DNA of 64,000 bases from Candidatus Eremiobacteria bacterium (GTDB lineage: Bacteria; Vulcanimicrobiota; Vulcanimicrobiia; Vulcanimicrobiales; Vulcanimicrobiaceae), in the NCBI GenBank assembly GCA_963758295.1, contig CAVWUU010000001.1, positions 384,001-448,000 on the forward strand. The letters are read 5' to 3'. Position numbers: made by a program. Positions within the stretch are counted from its first letter, which is position 1, and every line of letters starts with the position of its first letter. Shown here one piece after another: positions 9,001 to 15,000 of the stretch.

Positions 9001-12000
9001 TCATAATGTTGGCGCAAGTCGGCAAACAGGCACCCGATTTCAAACTTCCGAGCACCAAAGGCGCGACCGGAGCGAAGGACCTCGGCAAAGAGATCAAGCT
9101 CTCCGACTATCGCGGCAAATGGCTCGTGTTCTTCTTTTATCCACTGGACTTTACGTTTGTGTGTCCGACCGAAATCACGGCACTTTCGGACCGTGCAGAC
9201 GAGTTCAAAGAGTTTGATACCGAGATCCTCGGCGCGTCGACTGATTCGGTGCACAGCCACTGGGCATGGATCAACACGCCGCGTGAGAAGAACGGCATCG
9301 CGGGTCTGAACTACCCGCTAGTCGCCGACTACACGAAGGAAACGGCGCGTGCCTACGGCGTTCTCGACGAAGCGTCGGGCGTCGCGCAACGCGGGCTCTT
9401 CATTATTGATCCGGAAGGCGTGCTCAAATACGCGGTGGTGACCGACGACAACGTCGGACGTAGCGTAGAAGAAACGCTTCGCGTTCTGCAGGCTCTTCAG
9501 ACCGGTGGTCTTTGCCCGGCTGAATGGAAACCCGGCAAAGCGCTGCTCCAGAAGGCATAAATGGCACTACGCATGCGCAGCCCTCTTCCTTCGCTGGAGG
9601 GGGCTGCCGCGTGGCTCAACGGTGAAGTAAAGTCCGAAGAGCTGCGCGGACTTCCCGTCGTTGTCTCCTTTTGGTCGAAGAGCTGTTACATCTGCCATGA
9701 CACCGCCGAGCAATTCGCGCAGTGGCGCGATAAATACGCAAAGCACGGTGTCGCCTTTCTTTCGGTGCATCAGCCGCGTTCCGAGGACGAACTCGACGTC
9801 GAAGCAGTGAAAAAAGATGCCGTCGAAGAGATGAAGCTTACTCAGCCCACGGCGATCGACAACGATCACGCGCTTGTGGAGCGCTTCCAAAACCAATTCG
9901 TGCCGGCGTTTTACGTCTTCAACCGAAAGCACGAATTGCGTCACTTTCAAGCGGGCGGCAAAGGCTTCGAGCGTATCGAAGCGGCGATCGACCGCGTATT
10001 GAACGAGACGCCGGAGGAAGAAGAACTGAACGCTTAGCATGCGTTCTTAAATTTCGGTGAAAAGTATTCGCTAAACGGCCCACCGCGCAAGCGGTGGGTC
10101 GTCGCGTTTTACTGCTCTTAGCACCGGGTAATGGGCCACCGCTGGGAGGATCAATACATGAATAAAAGATTCGCAAGTTTTGTCGTGCTCGGAGCTCTTG
10201 CGGCCACTGCCTCTATAGCGGCAGTTGACGCAAAGACCGCCGCACCGACATCATCTGCAACGGCCTGTCCAAGCTCGTCACCAATGGCCTCCACATCCAA
10301 CACGATGAGCGAAGACAGTACGAAAATGGAAAACTGCGCCTCGCCCTCACCCGGAGCGATGAGCAGCATGGCTCCCGGAGCAAAGGCAAGCCCCGGAACC
10401 ATGGGCAGCGCAGCGCCGACCTACACAGCTCGTCCCTAAACTGTAACTCCGCAACGACCGGAGGTCGATGCACGCGCCGCCGCTAACGACAGGCGCGTGC
10501 ACGACGGGTCTTTCCGCCTCGCCGTTTTTTGCGGGCCATCGTTGCCTCAATGCGATCGTCTGGCCGACGACCGCGTAACGTATCTGCCGCCGGCATCGCG
10601 CGGCGACGTTCTTCGTGCCGCTAAAGACTACGACGCCGTCCTGCTTATCGACGGCCTCTTCCATCACGATCTCGCGCCTGCGCCGAAAGAATGTTACGAA
10701 TCGACGCTGCACGCCCGAATGTTCGGCGCATCGAGTATGGGCGCGCTGCGCGCGGCCGAATGCGCGCCATACGGTTTTGTGGCGCTTGGCGCTATTGCTG
10801 GTTGGTACGTTCGTGAATCGATCGATGGTGACGATGAAGTCGCGGTGTTAACGCATCCGCAGTCCGGCCGCGCGATCACCGTTCCCGTGGTGAACGTGCG
10901 GCACGTGGCGCGGCTAGCTCGGCGTCGCGGACTGCTTTCGCGTGCGGGCGAGGCGCAGTTCATCGCTAGCGCACGCGAGATTTACTACATGGACCGGAGT
11001 TGGGACGGCGTCATTGCATGCGCGCCTCCGTCGATTGCCAAGCAGTTACACGAACTCATTATGGAGTCAGGAGATCTAAAGCGCCTCGATGCGCGCTTTG
11101 CACTTCGGACGGTGATAAGAACGCTTCAGCGCACAAAAGACGCACGGATTCCATTCGTTACGAAGCGCCCTGCATGCGAATCGGCGCGCGAGTCCGGCGA
11201 AGTGCGACTGCCCTCGACTTCTCCGAAAGATCCCTCGACGTACGATCGCGCGACCAGCTATGCCAGCACGCTCGATCTTGCTCCGGAATTGCGGCGTCGT
11301 TTTGGAATCACTCGCATAGCGGATATAACGAACCTCGACCGGGTCGGCATCCCGGTCTATTCAACGCTCGTTCCGCGTTCGCCCGACATGCTCGGCGTCT
11401 ACAACGGGAAAGGGCTAACGCGCGACGCGTCCATCGCGAGCGCGATCATGGAGGCCGCAGAACGGCAGATCGCCGCCAACGTGCGCCTTCCGGCTTTCGA
11501 GGAAACGGTTGAAGCGGTTTCGCAGCACATCGATCTTCCCGAACTCGGAATGATTGACGTAGCGCCGTCAATGCCGGTACAGTGCGTTCGCGGGACGGAA
11601 TTGCTCTCGGGCGATTCGGTTGCGATTCCGCTTGCACTCGTCCAATGTCCGTGGTTCGGAGAGAAGCTCTTCGATGTCACCAGCACGAACGGGCTCGCGT
11701 CAGGCAACAATATAGCGGAAGCTGTTTATCATGCCTTGTGCGAATTGGTCGAGCGCCACGCCTGGGCGATGTATCACGTACGTTCGTCACTTGTTCCGCG
11801 GCTGTTCGGCGGAACGAACGCGATGGATCGCAGCGTCGCTCCGCAGCTAAAGCTGCCGACGGGCGACCGAGTCGTCGACGCGCTGATCGAAAAAATCGAA
11901 TCCGCCCGACTCGTGTTGCGAGCATTCTTGCTCGAAGAGGCGGAGCTGCCCTATACGGTATTCGTCTCGATTTTTGAGCCGGATCTCGAACCGCCGATGG

Positions 12001-15000
12001 TGCACATGGGCATGGGCTGTTCGCTTTCCCCCGCGCATGCGCTGGTACGGGCGCTGACCGAGGCCGTGCAGAGCCGTGCGATCGACATTCAGGGGGCGCG
12101 CGAAGACATGTTGCGTCCCGACGATCCACCGACAAATATGGGCGAACATAATCGACGCCGCAAAGAGTTACCAAAAGATCGTTGGTATTTCGACTTGCCG
12201 GCTCGAGAGATCGAGCTTTCGGGCTTCGTCGATCGTTCGAGCGATGACGTCGCACAAGATGTCCGCACGACGCTCGGCGCGCTCGCCGGTTACGGAATCC
12301 GAAAGATCTTTGCGGTCGAACTAGCGCCGGCGGATTTGTCCGTCAGCGTCGTGCGAGCGATCGTCCCGGGGTTGGAATCGTTTATGTACAGCGGGCGGCT
12401 CGGATCGCGAACTCGGGCGCTGCTCAACCCATTCGCGGTCGCCTGATGGAAAACCAAGACGGGTTACTCGCGCGGGTTTTACGCGGTGATTCGGCCGAGC
12501 GGCACCACTGGGACGAATACTACCGGACATTCCATGCGATGCGGCCGCGCACGACGTCGACGTACGCGGGAAGGCTCCGAACCGAAGATGCTAAGAGTTC
12601 CTATGATGTTTTGGCGGATGCGCTTGCGCCGGTCCGGTCGGTCCTGGATATAGGATGCGGGGACGGGGTGCTGCTCGCCGCAATTCACGAACGCTTTCCG
12701 AGCGCAGTCCTTTCGGGCGTGGACCTCGGCGAAGTGGATCTCGAGTTTGCGAGAGAGCGTCTGCATAACGTGCCGATCGGGACGCTCGCCGTTGAAAATG
12801 CATTAGATCTTCCGTTTGGCGATGAGTCGTTCGATGCGGTCGTCTCTCACATGGTCTTCATGCTGATTCCGGAGTTGGACGACGTGTTGCGCCAGGCGAG
12901 ACGCGTCTTAAAAGAGGACGGGACCGTTGCGTTTGTCGTCGGCGATCCGGCAGCTACCGAAGGTCATATGCGCCGATTTTTTACCTCGGTCAACGAAGCG
13001 ATTCGTACGGAGCATCCAAAGTTCACTCCCCTCAATCCCGCCGATCCGCGAATCTTCGATACGAACGGCATCCGGGAAGCGATGGAGGGCCAGGGCTTCA
13101 CGAACGTCGCGCAAGTTCGGTTCAAATGCGCAGCGCAGCTCGATGCGGATAGCGTTTACGAACAACTCTTGCTACGCTACTACACAGGATCGCTCGGCGA
13201 ACTCGATCTCCAACGAATCAAGGACGTCGCCGGCGCTTTCGCATCGCCGTCGTTCCGCTACACCGAATCACTGCGTCTTGTGACCGCAAATCGTTAAAGC
13301 GGCCGCCTGTTTGTCCGATAGATTCCTAGAGCCGAACTAACTACTGCTTCAGCGAGGATTTCATGGCGACAGTTCAACAGAAGGCGATTGCCGCCGGGTT
13401 TTTGCATGCATTGCAAGATCCCGCGGTGTTGGAAAAGTGGCAAGATGCCAAAGGCGATAGCATGAAGCTTCGCACGCTGATCAAAGACACGCTCGGGCTC
13501 TCGCAACTCCCCTCAGAGGCCGATCTGGATGCCATGCGCGGCCACGCCGAGGAAGCGCTTCAAGAAGAACACAAGACACTGCTCGAGCATCAAGAGCATG
13601 CGCCACACGTAGTCGGAAACGGATTTACCGTACAGCAGTAGACTGGCTCAGAACCCAGGTCGCGATCTGAGTTCGTTTCGAAACGCCGAGCTTGTTGAAG
13701 ATGTTGGCGACGTGGCCTTCGATGGTACGTTCGCTCAAAACCAACTGCTCGGCGATTTCTTTATTGCTTCTTCCCTCCGAAATCAGATCCGCGATCTGAC
13801 GTTCGCGCGCCGTGAGCGAGCCGCCCGTTTTGCCATCGGCCAGCGTAGTTTGCGTTTGGAACCACGAGACGCCGCGCTCAGCGAGCCCTTTGGCGGCGTC
13901 GCGTTGTTCGGTGCCGCGCCCGCACGCGGCGAGCAACAAAAACCGTGCCAGCGTCATGCCCAAATACTCGCATTGCGTTGCGAGCGCTCCGATCGATCCC
14001 GAGAGCTGGCGGCCCAAGAAATGATTGGCGAGGGCACCCGTAACGCTGCGTTCCGCTGCGGAAAGGGGCTGCATGTCGGCCCAAAAGGCGGAACCGTCTG
14101 CCGCTCGAGCCAGAACGTCTTTTCGCTTCAGCCTTTGAGCTGCAAGTGCGATAGGCAGGCGCCACTGGAAAAGGTATGGGTCTTGCGAACTCGCCGCATA
14201 CGGAAGGGCGGCGTCGAGAAGCCGCGAGCTCGTTTGATCGTCCAGAAGTCCTGAAGCAGCCGACCATACCGCCATGTTATATAACACAGCCGATTTTTCG
14301 CCCGCGGCGAATCGCAGCGCTTCCGCCTCGATCGTCTTCCAATAAGAACCCGGCGATCCGCGCAGCGCATAGAGCGCCGCCGCACTGCCCAGAATACGTC
14401 CCCGCTCGGAGCCCTCCAGCGGCCGGCGCAACGAGTCTTCGATGCTAAGCGATGCCTCATCGAGACGCGCGCTCTGAATTTTTGAATGCAGAACGAACTG
14501 CGTGAGCTCCGGATTGCGCACGTCGTTCAATTGCATCCGGATGAAGCCGTTATCGCGCGTTCCGAACTGCATGTACCGAATGTAGGCGTCGACAACCACG
14601 GCATGATTGCTATTAGTCGAATGGAGGGACTTGGCGATCTCCGTTATGAGAGGTAGACGCTTGCGCGCCGCTTCATAATCGCCCGACCTGCTCTCGACGA
14701 ATGCTTGCGCAATCTCCGCTCGCATTCGGACCGGGGCCGGAAGCTCGATGTCCAGGTTCTCGATGTGTTGCAAAGTTCGCTGTAAGCCTTCAACGTCGTG
14801 TTCGCAAACGTTAAACCAAAGCGCTGCCCCGTGGAGCATCGATAAGTCAAGCGGATCGCTAAATACCGAAGCGTAGTGCCGATAGGTCAGTTTAGCCGAC
14901 TCATACCGGTCGCCAAAGAATTGTGACAAGACGAGTTGCGCCGCAAGTGCACCGAGATTCGGAAGCTTACGATATTGCGCTTCGCTTAGCGCATGAAGCA

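Follow-up and report, generated by a model that had tools for sequence, protein, structure and literature searches.

The window analyzed here, a 64,000-nucleotide stretch spanning positions 384001-448000 of a contig from Candidatus Eremiobacteria bacterium, carries a gene for a fused TfuA-YcaO enzyme followed on the same strand by genes for a methyltransferase, whose start overlaps the stop of the fused gene, and a 92-residue protein; a convergent regulator, a small protein, and a transporter lie beyond them (Table 1). The ORF listing reproduced exactly the first three genes as placed in the initial annotation.

Table 1. Features of the TfuA-YcaO cluster (positions within the window)
Feature	Position	Strand	Evidence
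Fused TfuA-YcaO enzyme, 649 aa (TfuA ~7-211, then linker, then YcaO ~255-632)	10497..12446	+	ORF listing, Pfam, NCBIfam, PDB matches
Class I SAM-dependent methyltransferase, 283 aa	12446..13297	+	Methyltransf_11, 1.3e-20
Shine-Dalgarno-like GAGGA, 4 nt ahead of the ATG of the 92-codon gene	13354..13358	+	Read from sequence
92-aa putative precursor gene, whole	13363..13641	+	ORF listing
Putative leader, residues 1-81, four predicted helices, A80-P81 at its end	13363..13605	+	Alignment, AlphaFold2
Proposed core [11 protein letters not shown], residues 82-92, plus stop codon	13606..13641	+	
Convergent STAND-type regulator (AAA_16, helical repeats, LuxR/GerE HTH), two overlapping frames	13625..16245	-	
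Conserved small protein beside regulator, PAS-like predicted fold	16356..16730	+	AlphaFold2, Foldseek
OPT-family oligopeptide transporter, 647 aa	16777..18720	+	Pfam OPT, 8.5e-96

The putative modifying enzymes

Pfam returns both annotated domains of the fused enzyme above its cut-offs, namely, YcaO at residues 303-627 (2.2e-54) and TfuA at residues 52-168 (5.7e-27). The top NCBIfam matches are the McrA-glycine thioamidation YcaO family (TIGR03266; 5.3e-62) and TfuA (NF033432; 2.3e-39), with scores under both cut-offs (209.9 versus 365 and 135 versus 235.2, respectively), and the top PDB matches are the MJ1094 YcaO protein (6pe3; 6.9e-32) and TfuA (6xp8; 1.1e-24). Judged by these matches, its nearest curated families and solved structures are thioamide-forming YcaO and TfuA proteins. 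The motifs GKG..S..MEA.ER and TNGLASGNN..EA..HA..E..ER are common to MJ1094 and invariant in 30 fused orthologues, which share 57-67% identity with the enzyme of the window. A search of 401 genomes from the phylum found the whole fused enzyme in 34 (2 of them cut by contig ends), rather than the 31 counted initially, in the same number of genera (four); where the two domains are not fused, TfuA is encoded beside YcaO. The fusion as such is not new, since a fused tfuA-ycaO gene has been reported in Burkholderia thailandensis (PMC8120280). In that species, both domains likewise reside in one polypeptide in a presumed thioamide RiPP cluster, but two radical-SAM proteins occur there, whereas the locus in the window has none and instead a class I methyltransferase.

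The Methyltransf_11 match covers residues 67-163 of the methyltransferase, and its closest solved relative is LahSB (6uak; 1e-11 over residues 66-223), a match that barely beats those to generic methyltransferases (5.4e-10 and 2.6e-9). LahSB, likewise of class I, acts on RiPP precursors by methylating their C-terminal carboxylate and does not need the leader (PMC11285071). The proposed core in the window likewise lies at the very C terminus of its protein, but in multicore relatives, only the last unit would have a free C terminus before cleavage. We treat LahSB-like C-terminal methylation as a lead suggested by sequence similarity and make no assignment. Methyltransferases of the window's type are found in 13 of the phylum's 55 TfuA/YcaO loci, and the enzyme is not obligatory for the system, because one genus (g24) lacks it despite having precursors of the same core type as that of the window.

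A leader-core protein family linked to one YcaO clade

The 92-codon gene is under purifying selection: in 14 nonoverlapping pairs drawn from 30 genes, dN/dS (NG86) comes to 0.12 across the leader and 0.18 across the tail, which identifies it as a real coding gene. As originally annotated, its product belongs to no recognized family; Pfam gave just a subthreshold DUF7066 match (E = 0.077) and NCBIfam none, and no consistent match emerged when 32 and then 56 members of the family were scanned. The leader has invariant residues at F13, W26, D32, G45, L46, P50, D54, M58, and L66, and AlphaFold2 places helices at residues 2-17, 20-29, 33-44, and 52-78. From residue 75 on, pLDDT falls below 50, and disorder is predicted for the tail, whose family consensus is A-P-x-x-V-G-x4-(M/T/V)-Q, with hypervariable positions 86-89 (11 residue types at position 86) between fixed anchors. 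The motif H-x-V-G-x5-QQ proposed earlier is partly borne out: all 32 sequences have V84, G85, and Q91, but H82 occurs in 50% and Q92 in 66%.

Although the gene in the window has a single core, the core first delimited there matches a unit that occurs as two to six tandem copies in 10 of the 78 family representatives, at periods of 14-19 residues (28 in a single case) and with acidic spacers ending in Pro. Genes with two and five cores lie inside clusters L042 and L082. Some genomes hold two or three precursor genes in a row, as in G120, where three stand in tandem.

The 92-aa query matches 46 of the 401 genomes (E ≤ 0.01; 12 of 116 genera) at 49 places, and at 46 of these a YcaO gene of the same contig lies no more than 6 kb away. 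The other three are two short contigs and one false match (in G026) inside a histidine-kinase-like frame. Of the 34 genomes with the fused enzyme, 33 have the precursor, and the contig of the 34th stops at the YcaO gene. Within 1.5 kb on either side of 30 loci, we found the window-type methyltransferase in 27, the YcaO C terminus in 27, and a LuxR-type gene in 29; the misses comprise short contigs, genus g24, and one locus with a second precursor gene instead.

A leader HMM matches an ORF in 38 of the 55 TfuA/YcaO loci, and the cores of these ORFs fall into six or more dissimilar types. A quick tree built from 50 YcaO domains has one clade (SH-aLRT 100) in which 36 of 43 rows come with a leader-type ORF and another in which all 7 rows lack one. 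Core types cluster on this tree (13 changes versus a shuffled mean of 32.3), and one genome (G095) has two YcaO paralogues of different subclades, each adjoining the matching core type. These counts overstate independence, because many of the genomes are close kin. The family, which appears to be undescribed and phylum-wide, travels with one TfuA/YcaO clade. The multicore relatives, the tandem genes, the hypervariable core between anchors, and the linkage to this clade make it very probable that the TfuA-YcaO enzyme acts on the 92-aa protein as its substrate or precursor. The precursor reading of the initial annotation is strengthened accordingly, with cleavage as its putative part.

Comparison with known systems

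The thiovarsolin pathway of Streptomyces varsoviensis consists of the VarA precursor, the YcaO protein VarY, and the TfuA protein VarT, and these three suffice to make thioamidated peptides from a repeating precursor with no protease in the cluster (PMC6511847). The likeness extends beyond the YcaO-TfuA pair to a precursor family ranging from nonrepeating to five-fold repeating cores, the absence of a cluster-encoded protease, housekeeping peptidases being thought to free the products, and a Pro that immediately precedes the modified unit or lies within it (APR in thiovarsolin; A/T-P-x-x-V-G in the present family). VarA has a leader of ~33 residues and 16-residue repeats, in contrast to an 80-residue helical leader and a V-G...Q unit here, and the two precursors, compared by eye without alignment, have no sequence likeness. 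The heme-oxygenase-like, ATP-grasp, and amidinotransferase genes described there are absent here, where instead the enzyme is fused, methyltransferase, STAND regulator, and peptide-uptake genes are attached, and the phylum differs. The McrA thioglycine system of methanogens (YcaO plus TfuA; PMC5589413), to which the nearest curated families and structures of both domains belong, offers a parallel in the invariant Gly of the proposed target, but it is archaeal, its substrate is a large enzyme subunit rather than the product of a small linked gene, and the enzyme of the window scores below the curated cut-offs.

The leader also resembles Nif11 leaders (PF07862) in being helical, N terminal, similar in length, and followed by variable cores, and Nif11-related precursors, too, occur with TfuA-YcaO; PMC8120280 names them, in a figure legend, among TfuA clusters, and one genome of the same phylum (G035) has a true Nif11 precursor between YcaO and TfuA. 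With hhalign, residues 9-62 of the leader align with 5-55 of Nif11, covering that whole domain (P = 0.0025; probability, 12%). The Pfam Nif11 model matches 1 of 32 family members (E = 0.0089) and, over the 401 genomes, none of this family's loci. In contrast to Nif11 systems, there is no Gly-Gly cleavage motif ahead of the core and no C39-peptidase exporter nearby. The leader may be a very distant Nif11-like domain, a caveat that attaches to the earlier description of a wholly new precursor family. The accompanying claim of a first RiPP class for the phylum is contradicted by Paoli et al. (2022; PMC9259500), who characterized two pathways, phospeptin and pythonamide, from 'Ca. Eudoremicrobiaceae' of 'Ca. 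Eremiobacterota'.

Predicted pathway, alternatives, and regulation

We favor, with a probability of about 0.7, a cluster for the biosynthesis of a ribosomally made, posttranslationally modified peptide of the YcaO-TfuA (backbone thioamide) kind; in a soil bacterium from Eremiobacterota, a phylum about which little is known, such a thioamide peptide cluster with a candidate new precursor family is a good mining lead. Thioamidation, methylation, and any cleavage are steps that we infer. The leader would dock on the fused enzyme, the YcaO domain would use ATP to activate one backbone amide of the core, for which the invariant Val-Gly is the most plausible site, and the TfuA domain would bring sulfide from a ThiS-type carrier, thiocarboxylated and encoded at another place in the genome (a ThiS-family gene is present there), yielding the thioamide. 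The methyltransferase would add a methyl group, possibly as a C-terminal methyl ester. Unlinked peptidases, cutting after the Pro preceding the core and the Gln ending it, could release a peptide of ~10 residues, and the convergent STAND-LuxR regulator would govern the cluster.

Because its leader is unusually long and folded, the whole 92-aa protein could instead be the end product, modified (and methylated) but uncleaved, working as a small thioamidated protein. Protein substrates of YcaO enzymes are known, namely, McrA (PMC5589413) and the ribosomal protein uL16 (PMC13063428), both of which retain the thioamide once folded, and the YcaO domain here is closest to the McrA-glycine type. The ~80-residue leader with four predicted helices and strong purifying selection would fit such a role, as would the absence of a protease and an exporter from the ~10 kb around the cluster. 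No recognizable RiPP recognition element was found there either. We nevertheless consider it unlikely, since the disordered tail unit alone is multiplied with acidic Pro-ended spacers, a hallmark of released peptides, and hypervariable cores of unlike types share one leader. It is far less probable still that the 92-aa protein is a nonsubstrate neighbor, such as a partner of the regulator, with the enzyme's target encoded elsewhere: its gene adjoins the regulator in 29 of 30 loci, and STAND regulators occur in 37 of 38 precursor loci, but it still follows the YcaO gene where the regulator has a LuxR, cyclase, or BTAD output, core types track YcaO subclades down to the two paralogous pairs in one genome, and multicore forms and tandem copies make no sense for a regulator's partner.

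Returning to the favored peptide precursor, the chemistry could differ, as YcaO enzymes also make azolines and amidines (an amidine-containing RiPP is the subject of a published paper). On the core sequences, azoline formation cannot be the conserved reaction, because none of 32 cores has Cys, and Ser/Thr have no fixed place and are missing in 3. We hold it to be highly improbable that the enzyme makes an amidine, a macroamidine, or an azoline at some occasional Ser/Thr such as the one Thr of the window's core: TfuA, which PMC13063428 ties to sulfur delivery, is fused to YcaO or encoded beside it, and Pfam detects no dehydrogenase or E1-like partner in the window.

The regulator is split here into overlapping frames of 339 and 601 aa, with the frame change near 15280; Pfam finds AAA_16 (3.1e-22), and GerE at residues 538-592 (5.2e-19) of the 601-aa ORF (13625..15430, minus strand). 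Each orthologue is encoded by one uninterrupted ORF (853-905 aa), and the tblastn alignment changes frame around query residue 321/322. If this is no assembly error, the cluster may be silent in this genome because of the frameshift. The small protein (97-131 aa in relatives; AlphaFold2 pLDDT, 73), for which Pfam and NCBIfam hold no family, occurs in 17 of the 55 TfuA/YcaO loci, and its top Foldseek matches are weak ones to PAS domains (E, 5e-3 to 3e-2; TM, 0.45-0.54). The transporter matches TIGR00733 (657 bits versus a cut-off of 182.5), and OPT transporters occur in 10 of the 55 loci, all 10 with the precursor; it may be part of the system, its linkage perhaps owing something to inherited synteny. 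Together with the near-constant STAND regulator, a peptide-uptake part in 21 of the 38 precursor loci hints at a product that is sensed or reimported.

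Architecture of the cluster and its fused enzyme

The initial annotation had described a fused TfuA-YcaO enzyme, a methyltransferase, and a 92-aa protein as a single three-gene arrangement. This is confirmed: an ORF listing recovered the three co-directional ORFs at exactly the positions then given, with TfuA, YcaO, and Methyltransf_11 domains present. In the fused enzyme, the YcaO domain (PF02624) covers residues 303 to 627 (E = 2.2e-54; 185.4 bits versus a cutoff of 25.7) and spans the full model (positions 1 to 325 of 325), and the TfuA domain (PF07812) covers residues 52 to 168 of the same polypeptide (5.7e-27; 94.3 bits versus a cutoff of 30). 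The nearest solved structures are the YcaO protein MJ1094 (PDB 6pe3) and a TfuA, and residues 7 to 211 match the TfuA structure 6xp8 at 1.1e-24. The nearest curated families are the YcaO and TfuA proteins of McrA-glycine thioamidation, with scores below both equivalog cutoffs (TIGR03266, 209.9 versus 365 bits; NF033432, 135 versus 235.2 bits). The sequence blocks GKG, S..MEA.ER, TNGLASGNN, and E..ER are common to MJ1094 and are invariant in 30 orthologues of the fused enzyme, and they may contain the ATP/Mg-binding residues of the YcaO domain.

Features of the cluster and of related loci (E values and bit scores are those of the named models)
Sequence	Feature	Position	Strand	Length	Remarks
Window	Peroxiredoxin (AhpC/TSA) and thioredoxin-like gene	8991-10037	+		Directly upstream of the cluster
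Window	Small ORF	10131-10439	+	102 aa	Immediately upstream of the fused enzyme; signal peptide-like start, Ala/Ser/Pro/Met-rich body, no Pfam family
Window	Fused TfuA-YcaO enzyme	10497..12446	+	649 aa	ORF
Window	Class I methyltransferase	12446..13297	+	283 aa	Methyltransf_11, 1.3e-20; start overlaps the stop of the fused-enzyme ORF
Window	GAGGA	13354-13358			Ahead of the 92-aa gene
Window	Putative precursor gene	13363..13641	+	92 aa	65-base gap after the methyltransferase ORF
Window	Convergent ORF	13625..15430	-	601 aa	GerE, 5.2e-19; overlaps the final 17 bases of the 92-aa gene
Window	ORF	15226..16245			AAA_16 (Pfam), 3.1e-22
Window	STAND-LuxR regulator	13625-16245	-		Two frames (339 and 601 aa), junction near 15280
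Window	Small protein	16356-16730	+		No family; next to the regulator
Window	OPT oligopeptide transporter	16777-18720	+		TIGR00733, 657 bits
G118, contig C26 (L082)	Two-module cluster	5990-16013
G035, contig C3 (L128)	Canonical Nif11 precursor	1501-1785			Gly-Gly site; between YcaO and TfuA
L032	Precursor with C-terminal extension	11063-11497	-
G214 (L039)	B12-binding radical-SAM and PAS-GGDEF genes	12509-15743	-		Between a YcaO-methyltransferase pair and a separate TfuA

An enzyme match at E <= 1e-10 is found in 78 of the 401 genomes of the phylum (a tally that includes genome G248), and the whole fused enzyme is found in 34 genomes from four genera, g1 (2), g16 (9), g21 (17), and g23 (6), with two cut by contig ends. 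A fused tfuA-ycaO gene has already been published from Burkholderia thailandensis, and "Eremiobacter" does not occur in the available text of that paper (PMC8120280).

Promoter and terminator scans around the cluster gave counts at chance level (3 versus 1.9 and 9 versus 8.5), for which reason we dropped a promoter or terminator reading. Within about 10 kb of the cluster in the window, we found neither a protease nor an exporter. The upstream peroxiredoxin/thioredoxin-like pair also adjoins the cluster in several relatives, e.g., loci L032, L035, L042, L044, L045, L087, and L111 by rough gene calling, which may reflect linkage or a gene order kept by descent.

The 92-aa protein as a candidate precursor

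We predict from sequence comparisons that the 92-aa protein represents a precursor family, phylum-wide and so far undescribed, that serves a single clade of thioamide-forming enzymes. No Pfam or NCBIfam family matches it, and scans of this type with 32 and 56 of its relatives retrieved only scattered chance-level matches. Within the phylum, it is matched in 46 of the 401 genomes and 12 of the 116 genera, at 49 places, one of which (genome G026) is a false match inside a 370-residue histidine kinase-like frame. A word-indexed search of 5.8 billion proteins retrieved only 10 close relatives, every one of 92 aa and none named, and a profile of 32 members run against 1.84 billion cluster representatives (50% identity) retrieved 79 proteins at E <= 0.001, 48 of them at E <= 1e-10 and most of the 79 being 90 to 105 aa long. 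In the ESM Atlas, only unnamed clusters were retrieved. A related-locus search with the narrower family alignment (A1) yielded 33 loci; by their deposited titles, 22 come from Eremiobacterota or Vulcanimicrobiota metagenome-assembled genomes, including Aquilonibacter and Baltobacteraceae, and the other 11 are labeled Acidoferrum, Acidiferrales, Alphaproteobacteria, or plain "bacterium." A sequencing-run search listed no RNA run and six soil DNA runs with small shares (0.05 to 0.07).

In the 32-member alignment, F13, W26, D32, G45, L46, P50, D54, M58, L66, V84, G85, and Q91 are invariant. Column entropies identify A80-P81, just before the proposed core (residues 82 to 92), as near-fixed anchors and positions 86 to 89 as more variable than any others in the protein, with 11 residue types at position 86. 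The AlphaFold2 model (mean pLDDT, 67) has helices at residues 2 to 17, 20 to 29, 33 to 44, and 52 to 78, and its pLDDT is below 50 from residue 75 to the C-terminal end. On the basis of these invariants, entropies, and the model, the protein is predicted to consist of a conserved N-terminal portion that folds, followed by a short flexible tail in which fixed anchors surround a variable middle, in agreement with the leader/core layout proposed earlier. Across 14 nonoverlapping pairs drawn from 30 precursor genes, dN/dS is 0.12 for codons 1 to 79 and 0.18 for the tail, which marks the small gene as genuinely coding. The model has no PDB match below E 4.7 in Foldseek, and the A1 profile has none below E 0.58. 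We also considered and rejected a role as a ThiS-like sulfur carrier, given the helical structure and the lack of a C-terminal Gly-Gly.

The strongest new evidence for the precursor reading is that both cores and genes are multiplied. An automatic scan for internal repeats, for which 7 or more residues in 10 had to be identical, detected them in 10 of 78 family representatives, one 1,032-aa protein having been skipped; in a control with 20 shuffles of each protein, the highest score was 7 of 10 for 5 of the 78. The repeat period is 14 to 19 residues, or 28 in one protein. The repeated unit reads x-x-V-G-x5-Q, a brief and predominantly acidic spacer ending in Pro comes after it, and the protein ends at the last unit. 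The tail of the window precursor after A-P, [11 protein letters not shown], is one such unit. At the gene level, genome G371 (locus L042) encodes, in order, the fused enzyme, a two-core precursor, the methyltransferase, and a single-core precursor. The two-module cluster of G118 comprises TfuA, a five-core precursor, YcaO, a methyltransferase, a second YcaO, a precursor of another, Cys-containing core type, a STAND-LuxR regulator, and OPT. In G120 (genus g24), three consecutive precursor genes follow YcaO, and G208 has two, one on each side of the methyltransferase. The L032 precursor and the proteins P0011, P0014, and P0017 extend past the last core with a conserved C-terminal ..D-L-R-E-L-L-E-L-S-R-L-T.., which could be a follower or recognition sequence.

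The family is also closely linked to YcaO genes. Of the 49 precursor places, 46 have a YcaO match no more than 6 kb away on their own contig; the other three are two short contigs (G371:C4 and G263:C199) and the false match in G026. Conversely, the precursor is present in 33 of the 34 genomes with the fused enzyme, and the one left, G354, has a contig that stops at the YcaO gene. We ran an HMM of 56 family members against all six frames of 40 loci around separate TfuA and YcaO genes and 15 further loci; at least one ORF with this leader was found in 38 of these 55 loci. The tails following the leader fall into at least six unlike core types, exemplified by V-G..Q, ..FNG.., V-G..C..E-E, Y-P-A-M-N with hydrophobic residues after it, ..Y-V-D-G-F.., and ..Y-Y-E-M...

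Fifty YcaO domains were placed in a quick maximum-likelihood tree, from which YcaO ORFs of <330 residues and loci L045, L089, L093, L104, and L113 (no YcaO found by the rough gene caller) were left out. The tree separates 43 rows that form one clade (SH-aLRT, 100; stem length, 1.2), 36 of which have a leader-family ORF, from a clade of 7 rows, including G035, with no leader-family precursor. The fused enzymes form one clade of eight rows (support, 100), all with the V-G..Q core type. Core types change 13 times on the tree versus a shuffle mean of 32.3, and none of 200 shuffles was as low; because close kin share labels, this clustering is a description rather than a proof. In G095, two YcaO paralogues from two subclades each adjoin their matching core type, a pairing that is not explained by species relatedness.

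Predicted chemistry and comparison with known systems

None of 32 cores contains Cys, and Ser/Thr has no fixed place and is missing in 3 of the 32, so that the conserved reaction cannot be azoline formation. According to the available text of PMC13063428, TfuA is a hydrolase passing sulfide from thiocarboxylated ThiS homologues to YcaO, and the genome has one ThiS-family match (PF02597) above the cutoff, on contig C6 and unlinked to the cluster. Together with the nearest families and structures of the fused enzyme and the exclusion of azolines, these observations make a thioamide the best-supported predicted product. By analogy with thioglycine, its site would be the invariant Val-Gly. Of the earlier proposal of a thioamidated RiPP precursor, the putative substrate or precursor role is now supported well beyond the initial annotation by repeated cores, tandem genes, YcaO linkage, and tails tracking the YcaO tree, and the thioamide is still the inferred part.

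The best PDB match of the methyltransferase is LahSB (1e-11), with generic methyltransferases close behind (5.4e-10). LahSB methylates the C-terminal carboxylate of lanthipeptide precursors (PMC11285071). Of the 55 loci, 13 have a methyltransferase of the window type and 12 have one from another class I family; either kind is present in 24 of the 38 precursor loci. In genus g24, the same core type occurs with no methyltransferase; therefore, methylation is predicted to be a frequent but optional tailoring step. Besides the one of locus L039, B12 radical-SAM genes are found close to the divergent YcaO genes in loci L103 to L105.

Two known precursor types invite comparison. Thiovarsolins, according to the available text of PMC6511847, are APR tripeptides that are N-acetylated and carry a Pro-Arg thioamide, made by a pathway with a YcaO-TfuA pair in which three genes suffice and the cluster has no protease; its precursor family ranges from nonrepeating to five repeats. 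A repeating core is found in 10 of the 78 relatives of the window gene, which itself has one core. VarA, as given in the available part of the supplement to PMC6511847, has a short leader and 16-residue repeats, and by eye its leader length, repeat unit, and motifs are unlike those of the present family. The thiovarsolin accessories varO (heme oxygenase-like), ATP-grasp ligase, and amidinotransferase are all absent from the Pfam matches of the 21 ORFs in window positions 272 to 24983. Because VarA appears unrelated in sequence by eye, we regard thiovarsolin as the closest working analogue and not as the same family. As for Nif11-type leaders, the Pfam model (PF07862) matches 1 of the 32 precursor members (E = 0.0089) and none of the precursor-family loci in the 401 genomes. 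An hhalign comparison of the broad family alignment (A2) with 11 Nif11 precursors of the phylum aligned residues 9 to 62 with 5 to 55 over 51 columns (P = 0.0025; probability, 12%), the corresponding value for A1 being 0.034. No GG precedes the core, and no C39-peptidase ABC exporter is found in window positions 272 to 24983. The leader of the present family may be a far relative of the Nif11 leaders.

Nif11 matches occur in 34 of the 401 genomes (a tally that includes G329). The canonical Nif11 precursor of G035 comes from a distant family of the phylum, and G016, G022, G027, and G031 (family f12; 7- to 8-Mb genomes) have 10 to 16 Nif11-type precursor genes each, many with Cys-rich cores.

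To our knowledge, the products of only a few YcaO-TfuA peptide classes are known, little has been learned about the biological role of thioamide peptides, and the phylum has almost no cultured members. A literature search, which did not extend to bioRxiv supplements, found no paper in which YcaO, TfuA, or thioamides are connected with either Eremiobacterota or Vulcanimicrobiota. The candidate family would give an entire clade of YcaO-TfuA enzymes a well-defined precursor whose core has clear borders, and the combination of a single-chain fused enzyme and a short C-terminal core should be easy to reconstitute. A 2026 preprint counts four named classes of YcaO-TfuA peptides and adds one (PMC13174530). 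This is not, as had been suggested, the first RiPP class in the phylum, since the available text of PMC9259500 already reports the phospeptin and pythonamide pathways from it.

Regulators, uptake genes, and a possible role

Accessory genes were counted by tblastn over the 55 TfuA/YcaO loci. A STAND-type regulator is present in 46 of them and in 37 of the 38 precursor loci, with three types of output domain: LuxR HTH, BTAD, and nucleotide cyclase. In relatives, the regulator is a single ORF of 853 to 905 aa, and tblastn with a same-genus orthologue changes frame in the window at about residue 321/322; this change may be an assembly error or a real shift, perhaps indicating a silent cluster here. 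A family 5 solute-binding protein (SBP_bac_5) is encoded in 13 of the 55 loci and an OPT transporter, after the regulator, in 10, and one or the other occurs in 21 of the 38 precursor loci versus 2 of the 17 loci without a precursor, although the OPT linkage may be partly inherited gene order. The solute-binding proteins have signal peptides of the lipoprotein type, and their genes overlap the start of YcaO, on the same strand, in two loci. The small protein next to the regulator is present in 17 of the 55 loci; its AlphaFold2 model (pLDDT, 73) has a beta-beta-alpha-beta3 arrangement with a weak likeness to PAS domains in Foldseek (E of 5e-3 and up; TM, 0.45 to 0.54).

The regular presence of STAND regulators, a PAS-like protein, and peptide uptake parts near these genes points to a testable biological role. 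It suggests a peptide that is sensed or reimported, or a metal-binding peptide; many cores start with one or two His residues beside the proposed thioamide. A more specific scenario, which we offer as a speculation with the odds well against it, is that the product is a thioamide peptide signal or metal-binding peptide rather than an antibiotic, which would leave the cell, be bound outside by the solute-binding lipoprotein of the cluster, a member of the peptide/nickel-binding family, or be imported by OPT, and be read inside by the STAND regulator and the PAS-like protein. If so, backbone thioamides would be the basis of a diversifying ligand-receptor circuit present across the phylum. The family 5 solute-binding lipoprotein adjoins the YcaO or regulator gene in genera other than the OPT-bearing ones.
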